The translations under genes and the position numbers were made by a program. Below, piece after piece: positions 56,233-64,000 of a DNA stretch of 64,000 nucleotides. The notes under the pieces were generated by a model that saw only the letters and a program-made list of their open reading frames with translations, was not told the origin of the DNA and ran no database searches. The number at the start of each line of letters is the position of its first letter. Position 1 is the first letter of the stretch. Where the stretch lies: IMG/VR virus record IMGVR_UViG_2695420859_000012. One strand, written 5' to 3'. The DNA comes from a virus. Lineage: Duplodnaviria; Heunggongvirae; Uroviricota; Caudoviricetes.

Positions 56233-56919
56233 TCAACAAAAACTGGCCACCGAGTTAGAGTTTTTCCAGTATCGATTTTCCGATTCATTTGGGGGTAATC
56301 CACCGTTATATTCGTGCGGTCTTAGTGCGCTGTAATATCCAACGATATAGTCCGTTATGGCGTGAGCTGCCTCGCTGAAGCTTACGTAACCCACCACCGG
56401 CATCCATTCGTTCTTCAGACTCCTGAAGAAGCGTTCCATTGGGCTGTTATCCCAGCAGTTTCCGCGCCGGCTCATACTCTGCCTGATCTGGTATCGCCAC
56501 AATAACTGCCGGAACTGCCTGCTCGTATAATGACTGCCCTGATCGCTGTGGAACATCACTCCGCCGGGCTTACCACGGGTTTCCCATGCCATTTCCAGCG
56601 ATTTCATGGTGAGCCTGCTGTCCGGCGAGAACGACATGGCCCAGCCCACTGGTTTTCTTGCGAACAGGTCGAGAACAACGGCGAGGTACGCCCAGCGCTT
56701 ACCCGTCCAGATATAGGTCACATCACCGCACCACACCTGATTTGGCTCGGTCACGGCGAACTGCCGTTCAAGGTAGTTAGGGATAGCAACATGTTCATGA
56801 CCACCACGTTTATACCGGTGAGTCGGCTGCTGACAGCTGACCAGCCCCAGCTCCTTGGCAATTTGACGTCCTTTCAGGCCTGGTGACCCACCTAATAACT
56901 CTGAGACTGCCTTCAGCAA
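56233..56919 (-). pseudogene. IS3-family transposase OrfB remnant (5'-truncated IS copy)
   Basis: DDE catalytic core present ([26 protein letters not shown]-terminal [19 protein letters not shown]), but the N-terminal part of OrfB and all of OrfA are missing; the hsdR stop lies 15 bp upstream. Confidence 0.7.
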
Positions 56920-56933
56920 ACCATCACTCCTTT

Positions 56934-61138: not shown

Positions 61139-62470
61139 CTATTGCTCAACCATTTCTGGGGTGATCTTGATTTTTCCTGTCACGGCGCTGTTGATCAGGG
61201 TGGTTTTATATTCTTTAAGCTTTTCGATTTGTATTTTTTGATACTCTATAGCTCGCTCAACATCACCATTTAATCTGTTAATGTACGTAATAATTCCATC
61301 TCGTTCATTTTTAGAAGGGGGGAAAGGCACAAAAATGCTATTAAGATTCCCCACTGTAAGCTGATTAATTGTTGATGTAAGAAATGTCCCTGATAACATT
61401 TTGAAAACATCACTATTTAGAATGCAAAATAAATACTCATTGTGTTTAGATCTGAATACCGTAGTAAAGGCCCCGAAGCTGTTTCCCTCATCAGCGTCAG
61501 ATACAAATGCACACTTGCCAATTAGGTCTCGACTTCCATTCCTGGAGCATATCAAAATATCACCTTTTTTAAGCTTTAAGTGCTCAGGAATAAAGCAATT
61601 GACATAAACATTTTCCTTTTCACCATACTTAAACTTCCCTTCGTATAAGTTTGATGATCGCGCAACTAGAGTTCCGCCTTTTTCATCACTTAAATCATTT
61701 GGCGAATAAGTTAACCCAATGATCGATTTACCAAGATATTTTAACCTCTTAACGTCCCAATGCGCTGGAATCTTACCAATCCAATCCACACCGGAGTCTT
61801 TCATTGGCACATTGGGATCAAGCCCTTGGGTCACCGCCTGTTGGATGATGATCTGCTTACGCTCTTTCAGCAGGCTAATTTGCTGCTCTTTGATCGAAAT
61901 CGCTTCGTCGATTAGAGCGGTTTTCTTGTCGAGAAAATTTGCAATTAGGGACTGCTCTTCTTCTGAAGGCAGGACAAAAGGAATCACCTTCATCCGTGCT
62001 TTTGAAAGGTCCCACTGACCAATCCTTACACCATCTGATGCACTACCAAAAAACGATACATATAACTTACTGCGTATCGCCCAATTGAAAAACTCAGGAT
62101 TTATTGCCTTTGTAAAATCAAAAATAAAATACGCAGGACTTACAATTCCAGTGAACTTTGATACACCGTAAGAACCCTGCCACGCTTTCATTTTATTCAT
62201 TCCAAATTGACCTTTCTCAAGCTTTTTATAGCCGCTAAGATCATCTGGTATAAAATTGTGATTTGACTCTTGATTATCCACGTCTCTCTCGATAACACCT
62301 TGTTCGCGTGTTATCGAAAGTAGTGGCAATTCAGGGCAGTTTTTGACCGACACCGGAGATAGGCACGAGCCTAACTTAACCAAGTCCCAATGCTCTGGAA
62401 TCTCGCCAATCCACTCATAACCAGAGTCACTATATTGATCATACTTTAGCGTTGAGGTAATGCTTTCCAT
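61139..62470 (-). CDS. hsdS: Type I restriction-modification specificity subunit
   Basis: 443 aa with two target-recognition-domain halves, each introduced by an IP(E/A)HWD-type motif (GEIPEHWDLVKL and GKIPAHWDVKRL); start overlaps the hsdM stop. Confidence 0.8.
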   Translation of the reverse strand: MESITSTLKYDQYSDSGYEWIGEIPEHWDLVKLGSCLSPVSVKNCPELPLLSITREQGVIERDVDNQESNHNFIPDDLSGYKKLEKGQFGMNKMKAWQGSYGVSKFTGIVSPAYFIFDFTKAINPEFFNWAIRSKLYVSFFGSASDGVRIGQWDLSKARMKVIPFVLPSEEEQSLIANFLDKKTALIDEAISIKEQQISLLKERKQIIIQQAVTQGLDPNVPMKDSGVDWIGKIPAHWDVKRLKYLGKSIIGLTYSPNDLSDEKGGTLVARSSNLYEGKFKYGEKENVYVNCFIPEHLKLKKGDILICSRNGSRDLIGKCAFVSDADEGNSFGAFTTVFRSKHNEYLFCILNSDVFKMLSGTFLTSTINQLTVGNLNSIFVPFPPSKNERDGIITYINRLNGDVERAIEYQKIQIEKLKEYKTTLINSAVTGKIKITPEMVEQ

Positions 62471-64000
62471 TAGGCTTCTCCCTGAACTTCCGCCACTTTC
62501 ACGCCTAATATTTGTGCAATCAAACCATCAGCCTTCTGCTCTAGATTGATAATGTCAGTTGCTACTTCTTCAAGACTACGTAATGGCTTATGCAGATAGA
62601 AATACTTATTGAAGCTGATTTCATAGCCAATTTTTACCGTATCTAGGTTTATCCATGCTTCATCGACATGAGGCTTCACTTCATCTAGGAAGTACTGGTA
62701 AATGCTTTGCTTTAATGGAACAGATTCTGTATCTCGCAGGTCTGAATTGGTCTCGTAAGTGATATACTCGCCTTTTTTACCGCCTTCTGCTGAAGGAACG
62801 GGGTAATAACCAAAATCTGGCAAGTCAGCGACTTCACACTCATAGCGCTCCAGCAGGTCGTTTAATTTATCACCCGTTAATTTAACTACCTTTTTAACCA
62901 CTTTCTTGGCGGTTTCGTCATACCAGCTCACCGCGTGAAGAATGGCATTTTTCTCAGGTGCTGAAAGCTTAATAGCATGGGCTTTTAGCGATTTATCAAC
63001 TTGGGTTTTAAAGCTATTGAAGTCATCAAATTCAATGCTACCGATGTCAGCCATCAGCGTTTGTGCAGTTTCAAGCAATGCTTTTAGCGCCAGCCAGTGT
63101 TTCACATCAAGCAGTTTGGCCTTAGCCTTAGCATTGAGACTGATGTCGTTATCTTCACACCAAGAAAGAATGTCTTTCTCGATGGATTTTAAGAAGCTCT
63201 TTTTCTGATCTGACCCGTAGCCAGTTTTTTCGTAAACACGTTCGCCGTGCTCTGCGTACACGTACTCCATCACTTCACTAAGTTGCTTATCAAAACGCAG
63301 TGGGGCTATGGCATCTTGAGTAAACTTGGCTTTGCGGCGATCTGGGCGCTCGATAGTGACTTTGTAGTAGCCAAAATCGTCATTGCTGAATACCTTACTG
63401 GCGATGCCAACAGGATCATTGTTTGCATCCAGTGCTCTTTCAACATCCTTACACGCGAGGTAAGTATCGGTAATTTCCGTGATGTGCTCAGGCGCAAATT
63501 CGCAGTTTTTGTTACCTAAGTTCTTGCGCAACTTACGGTAGAGCAAGCTGGCATCAATTAATTGCACCTTACCTTTACGCGCCTCAGGTTTATTGTTGCT
63601 CAACACCCAAATGTAAGTGGTAATGCCAGTGTTATAGAACAGGTTATTAGGTAACTGAACGATGGCATCTAGCATGTCGTTTTCAATGATGAAGCGACGA
63701 ATATTACTTTCACCACCGCCCGCATCTCCGGTAAAGAGCGATGAGCCGTTATGAACAGAGGCAATCCGGCTGCCTAATGGACTTACGCTCGGATCTTTCA
63801 TCTTGTTGACCATCTCCATTAAGAAAAGCAGCTGGCCATCACTCGAACGTGGCGTGGCATCCACCACTTCGAGATTTCCCCAATAGTCTTTCAGGCTAAC
63901 CTTAAAACGCGGGTCAATCACATCACTGCCGTCTTTAATGTACTTCTGTTCAGACGCCCAACTCTTACCGTATGGCGGGTTAGACAACATAAAGTCAAAG
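62470..64000 (-). CDS. hsdM: Type I restriction-modification methyltransferase subunit (5' end beyond window)
   Basis: Frame is open to the window edge; NPPYG motif IV sits at the in-window N-terminus, so motifs X and I must lie upstream of 64000. Confidence 0.85.
   Translation of the reverse strand, partial: FDFMLSNPPYGKSWASEQKYIKDGSDVIDPRFKVSLKDYWGNLEVVDATPRSSDGQLLFLMEMVNKMKDPSVSPLGSRIASVHNGSSLFTGDAGGGESNIRRFIIENDMLDAIVQLPNNLFYNTGITTYIWVLSNNKPEARKGKVQLIDASLLYRKLRKNLGNKNCEFAPEHITEITDTYLACKDVERALDANNDPVGIASKVFSNDDFGYYKVTIERPDRRKAKFTQDAIAPLRFDKQLSEVMEYVYAEHGERVYEKTGYGSDQKKSFLKSIEKDILSWCEDNDISLNAKAKAKLLDVKHWLALKALLETAQTLMADIGSIEFDDFNSFKTQVDKSLKAHAIKLSAPEKNAILHAVSWYDETAKKVVKKVVKLTGDKLNDLLERYECEVADLPDFGYYPVPSAEGGKKGEYITYETNSDLRDTESVPLKQSIYQYFLDEVKPHVDEAWINLDTVKIGYEISFNKYFYLHKPLRSLEEVATDIINLEQKADGLIAQILGVKVAEVQGEA

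Follow-up and report, generated by a model that had tools for sequence, protein, structure and literature searches.

An 8.9-kb island on an SSU5-like phage-plasmid with a Type I restriction-modification operon and an embedded candidate DUF4268 nuclease gene

The end of the window (the whole stretch of 64,000 nucleotides that was analysed) carries most of what is probably a defence island of 8.9 kb with a mobile four-gene core, hsdM-hsdS-DUF4268-hsdR, in which a Type I restriction-modification system is accompanied by an independent and complementary nuclease. This reading draws on gene content, intact motifs, protein fold, origin, junctions and distribution. The E. coli plasmid pSJC33-2 (NZ_CP080257.1) is 100% identical to the window and is an SSU5-like phage-plasmid, whose backbone shares 94-99% identity with the phages Cyrano and PhiR41_1 and is also related to SSU5. 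The island runs from window position 56226 to about 65144 in window-equivalent coordinates, so that its far end lies beyond the window. The initial annotation had proposed extending the window to find this other boundary and the start of hsdM, and both were reached in the source plasmid. The cassette is real and well explained, and it is ordinary among known kinds of defence systems.

The order of the four genes on one strand, as first annotated, was borne out by the open reading frames and profile matches, which place all of them on the minus strand. Within the window, hsdM (62470..64000) is represented by the 3' 1531 bp of a 2430-bp gene for 809 aa, which starts at window-equivalent 64899. 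A frameshift or truncation of hsdM upstream of the window had been named as a possible refutation; in NZ_CP080257.1 the gene for the full-length 809-aa protein is intact, as are motif I (DPACGSG229) and motif IV (NPPY307). HsdM matches Pfam N6_Mtase (6.7e-26), PADLOC MTase_I (E=1e-145) and TIGR00497 (6.9e-31). The hsdS gene (61139..62470, minus strand) encodes a specificity subunit of 443 aa, WP_032328846.1, with Pfam Methylase_S and a full-length match to PADLOC Specificity_I (E=5e-126). When it was compared with 7 other alleles, the two target-recognition regions were mostly 0-40% identical, whereas the central and C-terminal regions were ~80-100% identical; across the eight alleles these two variable and two conserved blocks form the classic two-variable-domain mosaic. 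The Type I restriction subunit, with nuclease and SF2 motor, is encoded by hsdR (56934..59951, minus strand; 1005 aa), which carries the Pfam domains HSDR_N, ResIII, SWI2_SNF2 and T1R_D3-like, matches TIGR00348 hsdR (E=2e-62) and retains intact motifs (D155..E169-L-K171, GSGKS319 and DEAH431). The gamma-class motifs of HsdM, the two-domain HsdS and the PD-(D/E)xK plus SF2 architecture of HsdR are thus those of Type I subunits.

Comparison of the subunits with families IA (EcoKI) and IC (EcoR124) showed no close similarity and did not place the system in either family. HsdM is ~290 aa longer than the M proteins of EcoKI and EcoR124 and matches them in the methyltransferase core only (E 1e-9 to 8e-23), and HsdR matches the R subunit of EcoR124 across about 300 residues (E~4e-12). 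The spacing of the genes fits an operon: the stop of hsdM and the start of hsdS share bases in TAATG, and gaps of 8 bp and 14 bp separate the DUF4268 gene from hsdS and hsdR, respectively. Identical proteins were found on 267 contigs for HsdM, 303 for this HsdS allele and 556 for HsdR, which argues for a maintained, working system.

The embedded gene (59966..61129, minus strand) encodes a protein of 387 aa, WP_032328845.1, with an N-terminal NucS-type PD-(D/E)xK nuclease domain followed by a C-terminal DUF4268 domain (residues 238-372; Pfam, 136 bits against a cut-off of 27). Residues 1-383 match positions 1-373 of the 375 in the PADLOC profile PDLC04913 (PDC-S11; E=1.8e-182). The motif D..ExK..QxxxY is formed by D63, E77, K79, Q90 and Y94 and is conserved across 60 representatives of 30-59% identity, with E77 of the D63..E77-N-K79 core present in more than 90% of them. 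A PDB search with the single sequence gave no match; the 60-sequence profile was required, and its top structural match was NucS. The fold of the DUF4268 domain is T3SS-chaperone/YbjN-like. The term 'NucS-like' used in the initial annotation therefore holds for the nuclease domain, in both motif and fold, but does not extend to orthology. Similar to NucS/EndoMS (P. abyssi 2VLD; T. kodakarensis 5GKE), the protein has the catalytic-domain fold and the D..ExK..QxxxY motif; unlike it, it places the nuclease N-terminally before DUF4268, has no NucS N-terminal mismatch-binding domain and scores 23.9 bits with the NCBIfam NucS/EndoMS equivalog, far under the cut-off of 216. Its sequence makes the embedded gene a candidate defence gene in its own right, of the PDC-S11 and MdgA-like kind.

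The origin of the core could be traced. Its 8.2 kb (island x338-8559) are 92-96% identical at the nucleotide level to a cassette of the SXT/R391 defence hotspot in Vibrio and Alteromonas. Versions of the DUF4268 protein with at least 97% identity occur in Vibrio, Proteus, Providencia, Alteromonas and others. The V. cholerae and Alteromonas copies of the cassette are located between rumAB and traI, with BrxR ahead of them and CBASS alongside. The four genes, their order, their spacing and the protein lengths (809/~435/387/1005 aa) are those of the SXT/R391 cassette BrxR-hsdM-hsdS-DUF4268-hsdR, with a DUF4268 protein 98-99% identical. The copy described here differs in that the downstream 361-aa gene is reduced to its first 79 bp and brxR to its last ~50 bp, in that CBASS and ICE neighbours are absent, and in having IS3-family remnants as flanks and a phage-plasmid as carrier. 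The intact WYL/BrxR gene present directly upstream in the ICE copies is absent; beside the IS end, that ~50-bp part of brxR and 163 bp of native DNA are all that is left upstream of hsdM. By sequence comparison, then, the cassette is the SXT/R391 hotspot cassette minus its BrxR regulator and downstream neighbours. The DUF4268 gene had been described as inserted, which holds in an evolutionary sense only: it keeps its position in all close cassette copies, from E. coli, Vibrio and Alteromonas, and the comparison indicates that it is a conserved operon member and not a local insertion.

Homologues of the DUF4268 protein were examined at 80 species-level loci. Thirty-two are linked to Type I genes and 27 are clearly stand-alone, a call made by phmmer with the HsdM and HsdR of this window plus Pfam on the nearest neighbours only. 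From these two figures, two complementary defences are the likeliest reading. The autonomy of the nuclease is also supported by its context, which changes at least 11 times on the tree. The slot directly upstream of hsdR is occupied in 25 of the 32 Type I-linked loci, and at least two other Type I families, with an HsdM of 506-586 aa and an HsdR of about 1015-1085 aa, likewise have the gene between hsdS and hsdR. The constancy of this slot, which is that of prrC in EcoprrI, might point to a functional link and not just to joint carriage.

For the preferred reading, every enzymatic activity and the independence of the nuclease are predicted from the intact motifs and from knowledge of the families. 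A complex HsdM2-HsdS would methylate adenines in a bipartite target chosen by the two HsdS recognition domains, and the same complex with HsdR would translocate along and cut DNA bearing unmethylated targets. The 387-aa protein would act as a separate, self-sufficient nuclease with D63, E77 and K79 as catalytic residues and the DUF4268 domain as its substrate-sensing part, and by analogy with MdgA it might cut phage DNA whose hypermodification lets it evade the Type I enzyme. The two enzymes would then cover unmodified and modified invaders and would shield both the host and its phage-plasmid against competing phages; such protection by the cassette is plausible. MdgA is a DUF4268-containing nuclease that protects against T4 and Mu and for which T4 DNA is a far better substrate than unmodified T4-GT7 DNA; its E77A mutant is inactive (Cell Host Microbe 2025, PMC12366544). 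One gene suffices for its activity, its cleavage of DNA in vitro needs no partner, and it is widespread across phyla; metagenomic inserts yielded it as a lone gene (PMC12366544). The kinship is suggested by the shared domain content and by the coinciding number of the catalytic glutamate, E77, which here stands in the ExK motif. The MdgA gene was a lone metagenomic gene, whereas the present one is a member of a Type I operon.

That position invites comparison with EcoprrI (hsdM-hsdS-prrC-hsdR), in which an extra effector gene likewise lies between hsdS and hsdR (PMC12707154). As in that system, the DUF4268 nuclease might be held latent in the Type I complex and freed by a phage anti-restriction protein of the Ocr, Stp or ArdA type, with abortive infection or a back-up cut as the outcome. 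The occupied prrC slot and its recurrence with other Type I families point this way, as does the clustering of context on the tree (at least 11 switches, against ~20 in shuffles), and PrrC and PARIS provide precedent (PMC12707154). We nevertheless consider such a guard unlikely: among the 59 homologues whose context could be classified, 27 lack a Type I neighbour, MdgA gives defence on its own and needs no partner to cut DNA in vitro, and neither the ABC-ATPase nor the anticodon-nuclease domain of PrrC was found in the DUF4268 protein in Pfam, NCBIfam and PADLOC scans. PrrC is an ATPase-regulated tRNA-Lys anticodon nuclease of Type IC, the protein here is of PD-(D/E)xK DNA-nuclease type, and the Type I family of EcoprrI is unlike the present one. 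There is likewise only a small chance that the nuclease is a general PrrC-like guard wired to Type I systems and repeatedly recruited, in at least three Type I families, to the position between hsdS and hsdR. If this were so, it would fire when the complex is disabled by anti-restriction proteins, or find its substrate via the complex, and loss of BrxR on the phage-plasmid would leave the pair constitutively armed. The tight spacing (8 and 14 bp) and the strict joint inheritance of the gene and this Type I family in different genera would also suit an accessory Type I subunit, responsible for extra cleavage at stalled complexes, fragment processing or restriction alleviation during establishment in a new host. 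This we regard as distinctly improbable, given that HsdR has an intact nuclease motif of its own, that homologues are often solitary and that the position of the gene varies, since it follows hsdR in two loci (L075 and L084).

The loss of brxR and of the native promoter region raises the question of whether the cassette is a silent passenger, unexpressed or decaying on the phage-plasmid. Little native upstream DNA is left, the remaining 244 bp upstream of hsdM yielded no sigma-70-like promoter on the operon strand, and a promoter and terminator scan of that strand returned nothing usable; in some related plasmids a group II intron or an IS110 lies inside the matched region. The operon is, however, co-oriented with the upstream backbone genes, and since no promoter was found, expression may depend on read-through from them. 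None of the four open reading frames or of the catalytic motifs is disrupted, hundreds of contigs encode identical proteins, and hsdS alleles have been exchanged repeatedly among near-identical plasmids, which implies selection on specificity. A silent cassette is therefore very improbable. A NucS-like repair enzyme for mismatched or branched DNA, with no role in defence, would accord with NucS/EndoMS as the best sequence and fold match, but it is hardly credible: the catalytic domain alone matches, the equivalog score is low as given above, the contexts are defence islands and mobile elements, and the protein matches a PADLOC defence candidate.

The preferred reading, a Type I system with a complementary nuclease, also has a counterpart in the BREX island of pEFER, which embeds the Type IV enzyme BrxU under BrxR control (PMC8565348). 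Both would combine a methylation-based system with an embedded modification-dependent nuclease for complementary coverage, and BrxR belongs to the ancestral context of the present cassette. BREX is not a Type I system, its nuclease is of the GmrSD type and not of the NucS type with DUF4268, and BrxR has been lost here.

One defence cassette thus connects SXT/R391 conjugative elements, IS-rich chromosomal islands of E. coli and SSU5-like phage-plasmids, with specificity domains that swap freely between its copies. It offers a concrete case, open to testing, in which a Type I system comes together with a nuclease that is probably modification-dependent; such a pairing, if true, would close the route by which phages escape through hypermodification of their DNA. 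A transmissible prophage-plasmid would then account for part of the phage resistance of some E. coli, E. fergusonii and Enterobacter strains, a point that bears on phage-plasmid biology and phage therapy. Current concepts are left unchanged by these results.

Both termini of the island are IS3-family remnants. In comparison with Cyrano and PhiR41_1, ~1.1 kb of backbone is missing at the site; the island has replaced most of one hypothetical gene and most of the SPFH-lipoprotein gene. Nucleotide homology with these phages ends at window 56089. The last 32 codons of a homologue of CYRAN_58 of phage Cyrano remain at 56131..56225 (minus strand; 62.5% identity to aa 103-134, E=3e-15 by tblastn), truncated by the right end of IS911. 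The truncated IS3-family transposase originally noted at this backbone junction was correctly recognised and belongs to a 3' fragment of IS911 (nt 615-1246) at 56226..56856 on the minus strand, 98.6% identical over 632 bp to the IS911 of phage Sf6. The fragment ends in the right inverted repeat, with the terminus ...GTTGACACTTCA at 56226, and the NCBIfam transpos_IS3 match is restricted to profile positions 172-368 of 369. It is not a complete IS911: the left inverted repeat, orfA and the start of orfB are absent, and it is immobile because it has neither left repeat nor orfA.

The 93 bp downstream of hsdR (56841..56933, minus strand) are the 5' end of the ancestral 361-aa neighbour gene, common to the ICE and chromosomal copies; homology to three ICE loci (L007, L008 and L010) and two chromosomal ones (L006 and L099) stops at island x=8559, which is window 56841. 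Here the first 26 codons of that gene are joined in frame to IS911 orfB, giving a chimeric ORF of 228 aa with an rve domain (56233..56919, minus strand). The junction is at a 13-bp repeat, GAGCTGGGGCTGG, of which the cassette flank has one copy and IS911 another, near nt ~617; the missing left part of IS911 was deleted across this repeat. Because the first 26 codons derive from the cassette, the ORF starts 15 bp from the hsdR stop, before the genuine IS911 sequence at 78 bp.

At the far end, beyond the window, the SPFH gene is fused at its codon 60 to a second IS3-family element, of which 60 bp of the left end are present; this ~60-bp sequence has matches in 1195 of 5426 E. coli genomes. An IS911-like tail lies upstream of hsdM in the chromosomal cassette copies. 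A composite IS911 transposon was considered and rejected: the upstream end on the phage-plasmid belongs to a different IS3-family element and faces inward, and it is 14 bp longer on the plasmid than in the chromosomal copies. A pair of ~22-bp sequences upstream was likewise rejected as regulator-binding sites, because the first copy is the terminus of the upstream IS. With this second IS3-family left end and the missing backbone, the involvement of insertion sequences is stronger than first thought. The IS1 fragment reported elsewhere in the window, at 30318-30444, is also real, with ~130 bp that are 99.2% identical to IS1.

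The restriction island, which lies on the minus strand from window 56226 to about 65144, is real and, with its embedded nuclease, well explained by known biology. What is apparently new is its link to an SXT/R391 cassette, the precise IS junctions, and the quantified, non-obligate association of the DUF4268 nuclease family with Type I operons. ORFs and family scans bore out the operon described in the initial annotation, all on the minus strand: hsdM (62470 to past the window end; N6_Mtase, PADLOC MTase_I at 1e-145), hsdS (61139-62470; Methylase_S, PADLOC Specificity_I at 5e-126), a 387-aa DUF4268 gene (59966-61129; DUF4268 at 136 bits, cut-off 27), hsdR (56934-59951; HSDR_N, ResIII, SWI2_SNF2 and T1R_D3-like) and a 228-aa ORF with integrase-core domains (56233-56919; rve, transpos_IS3). 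The packing is operon-like, as the hsdM stop overlaps the hsdS start and the following gaps are 8 and 14 bp. The hsdM start, beyond the window, was located in the full source record NZ_CP080257.1; the broken hsdM that had been allowed for was not found, since the gene is complete (809 aa) and its motif I (DPACGSG at 229) and motif IV (NPPY at 307) are intact. The HsdR motifs are also intact (D155..E169-x-K171, GSGKS at 319, DEAH at 431), and the public contigs that carry the exact HsdM, HsdS and HsdR proteins number 267, 303 and 556, respectively. The Type I subunits are only distant kin of EcoKI (family IA) and EcoR124 (family IC). HsdM is about 290 aa longer than the M subunits of these two systems; a Pfam scan found no domain in its C-terminal ~320 aa (residues ~490-809; window 62473-63432), and a PADLOC MTase_I model covers this region.

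The window is 100% identical to the E. coli plasmid pSJC33-2 (NZ_CP080257.1; 113,446 bp; RepB-type replicon), whose backbone shares 94-99% identity with Escherichia phages Cyrano and PhiR41_1 and has a relative in Salmonella phage SSU5. This kinship identifies the carrier, at the level of backbone sequence, as an SSU5-like phage-plasmid, a group in which defence systems including restriction-modification have already been reported (bioRxiv 10.1101/2025.09.12.675607). All 25 related plasmids listed, from hosts that include E. coli, E. fergusonii and an Enterobacter sp., matched an 8-kb query from its first base. The query takes in 226 bp of backbone and the IS911 junction, and the sharing of this junction by the 25 plasmids points to a single ancestral acquisition. 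In the three relatives fetched with flanks, the island has the same genes on either side. Some sister phage-plasmids (NZ_AP027746.1, NZ_CP015915.1, NZ_CP075739.1, NZ_CP075488.1, and NZ_CP075475.1) carry a group II intron (ltrA) or an IS110-family element inside the matched region. Two larger plasmids, pTAir-3 (L017, 146 kb) and pYY76-1-1 (L018, 163 kb), harbor the same island and flanking genes; their typing (IncFIB/IncY, MOBC, MPF_T, conjugative) suggests phage-plasmid/conjugative-plasmid cointegrates. Upstream of the island, outside the window (21619-23958 of the source-plasmid locus L001), lies a backbone gene whose annotation is LAGLIDADG homing endonuclease in this plasmid and RecA in phage Cyrano; it probably encodes a RecA-like recombinase with an intein.

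Nucleotide homology to Cyrano and PhiR41_1 ends at window 56089 and returns at 65144, outside the window (positions above 64000 are window-equivalents from the source plasmid; island coordinate x = 65400 - window coordinate). In the phages this interval holds a 417-426-bp hypothetical gene, reduced here to its last 32 codons (window 56131-56225), and an 831-bp SPFH/stomatin-like lipoprotein gene, reduced to its first 60 codons. At its low-coordinate end the island stops exactly at the IS911 right inverted repeat (terminus at 56226), and the truncated IS3-family transposase noticed at the junction with phage genes proved to be IS911 nt 615-1246 at 98.6% identity. Comparison with chromosomal cassette copies attributes the truncation to a deletion: in strain N-01 the IS911 left end lies 148 bp past the hsdR stop, and the phage-plasmid form differs by a deletion between two GAGCTGGGGCTGG copies, one in the cassette flank and the other at IS911 nt ~617. 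This deletion took the IS911 left repeat, orfA and the orfB start, and produced the in-frame chimeric ORF of the initial annotation. The high-coordinate end (65085-65144) is the first 60 bp, from the left end, of a different IS3-family element, with its terminus toward the cassette and its interior joined to SPFH codon 60; of 5426 E. coli genomes, 1195 contain matches to this ~60-bp end, with as many as 16 in a single genome. Both island ends are thus marked by IS elements. The present structure takes at least three events to explain: insertion of two IS elements, and deletion or recombination on two occasions. The orfA of the unnamed element at the high-coordinate end begins MSGKRYPEEFKI. A second 22-bp copy resembling the terminal repeat follows the 60-bp IS end (L001 21063-21145, window-equivalent 65062-65144), which suggests insertion beside a pre-existing repeat-like sequence.

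Copies of the DUF4268 protein at least 97% identical are found in many Gammaproteobacteria, including E. coli, Proteus, Providencia, Morganella, Salmonella and Edwardsiella as well as several Vibrio species, Alteromonas, Marinomonas and Cellvibrio. The V. cholerae and Alteromonas loci read, in order, rumAB, an RNase_T gene, BrxR (WYL), hsdM (809 aa), hsdS, DUF4268, hsdR (1005 aa), two unknown genes, YdjM, CBASS and traI. This site is hotspot 5, the variable defence region beside traI in SXT/R391 elements, all of which are reported to carry anti-phage systems there (PMC12409358; bioRxiv 10.1101/2020.12.16.423150). Identity between the island and these copies is 92-96% across x338-x8559; of brxR the island retains only the final ~50 bp, and of the downstream gene only the initial 79 bp. 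In the SXT/R391 loci fetched (L007, L010-L014; ~16.2-19.6 kb) the two unknown genes encode 361 and 183 aa, followed by the YdjM-like gene and then, before traI, a CBASS operon made of a SAVED-HNH effector and a DncV-like cyclase. The DUF4268 gene is rare in complete E. coli genomes (59 of 5426; 39 chromosomal, 20 plasmid), and both chromosomal copies examined lie in IS-dense islands. Among otherwise near-identical plasmids hsdS varies: the eight alleles compared have the central and C-terminal regions in common and not the two recognition domains, whose exchange is the usual specificity change of Type I systems. In plasmid NZ_CP045191.1 identity is 99.3% over the 8-kb query and only 95.9% in the DUF4268 gene (match H127 versus H100/H101), and allelic exchange within the cassette therefore extends beyond hsdS.

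The DUF4268 gene had been described as inserted and NucS-like. It is present, but a local insertion is not upheld, since it occupies the same slot in every close cassette copy. A library-wide search with the protein returned 5541 representative clusters at E <=0.001 and 477 at <=1e-30. Among 60 full-length representatives of 30-59% identity, E26, D63, K79, Q90 and Y94 are invariant and E77 is more than 90% conserved; the D63/E77/K79/Q90/Y94 pattern is, judged by alignment, the D..ExK..QxxxY signature of NucS/RecB-type nucleases. A NucS-type nuclease domain is supported by the family profile, which matches P. abyssi NucS exactly at the catalytic motif (residues 159-192, E=0.0036), and by a weak NCBIfam NucS match (23.9 bits, cut-off 216) that is too low for membership of NucS itself. 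The PADLOC candidate PDC-S11 aligns with the whole protein (E=1.8e-182). The DUF4268 domain is already known as an addition to GmrSD Type IV enzymes (PMC4619093, PMC5714182). MdgA, a DUF4268-containing nuclease recovered by functional metagenomic selection, gives E. coli a defence against the phages T4 and Mu; it breaks down T4 DNA much more readily than the unmodified DNA of T4-GT7, and the E77A change abolishes its activity (PMC12366544). The catalytic glutamate is residue 77 in both proteins. This comparison of domain content and residue number is a strong lead that the window protein, like MdgA, would restrict modified DNA.

To determine how closely the gene is tied to Type I systems, 80 DUF4268 loci, one per species (49-98% identity), were compared. 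HsdM or HsdR neighbours were found at 32 loci, 9 of them in the same Type I family as the window and most others in families with HsdM of 506-586 aa and HsdR of ~1015-1085 aa. The gene lies directly upstream of hsdR in 25 of the 32. Because this recurrent slot between hsdS and hsdR coincides with that of prrC in EcoprrI (PMC12707154), a PrrC-like guard is kept as the main rival explanation for the DUF4268 gene. At the 27 loci having enough flanking sequence and no Type I neighbour, the nearest genes are heterogeneous, and the neighbour-joining tree requires at least 11 context changes, compared with ~20 in shuffles; the gene is therefore a module moving in and out of Type I operons. This mobility, together with the single-gene activity of MdgA, favours an autonomous enzyme.

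In the inferred mechanism, HsdM2S would methylate a bipartite target, HsdM2S with HsdR would translocate and then cut unmethylated DNA, and the DUF4268 nuclease would attack hypermodified DNA that evades the Type I enzyme. Plasmid pEFER, with its BREX-BrxU-BrxR island, offers the nearest conceptual precedent (PMC8565348). With BrxR gone, repression may have been lifted. The DNA that remains upstream of hsdM showed no consensus promoter on the operon strand. The operon runs in the same direction as the backbone genes upstream of it, which makes read-through transcription from the backbone a reasonable guess.

Elsewhere in the window, the IS1 junction of the initial annotation is real, a fragment of ~130 bp at ~30316-30449 with 99.2% identity. 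It is adjoined by metG (methionine-tRNA ligase) and apbC, a stretch unmatched by the SSU5-like phages of the phage collection, whose matches occur only from window 30514 onward. Window ~27017-30449 looks like captured chromosomal cargo.
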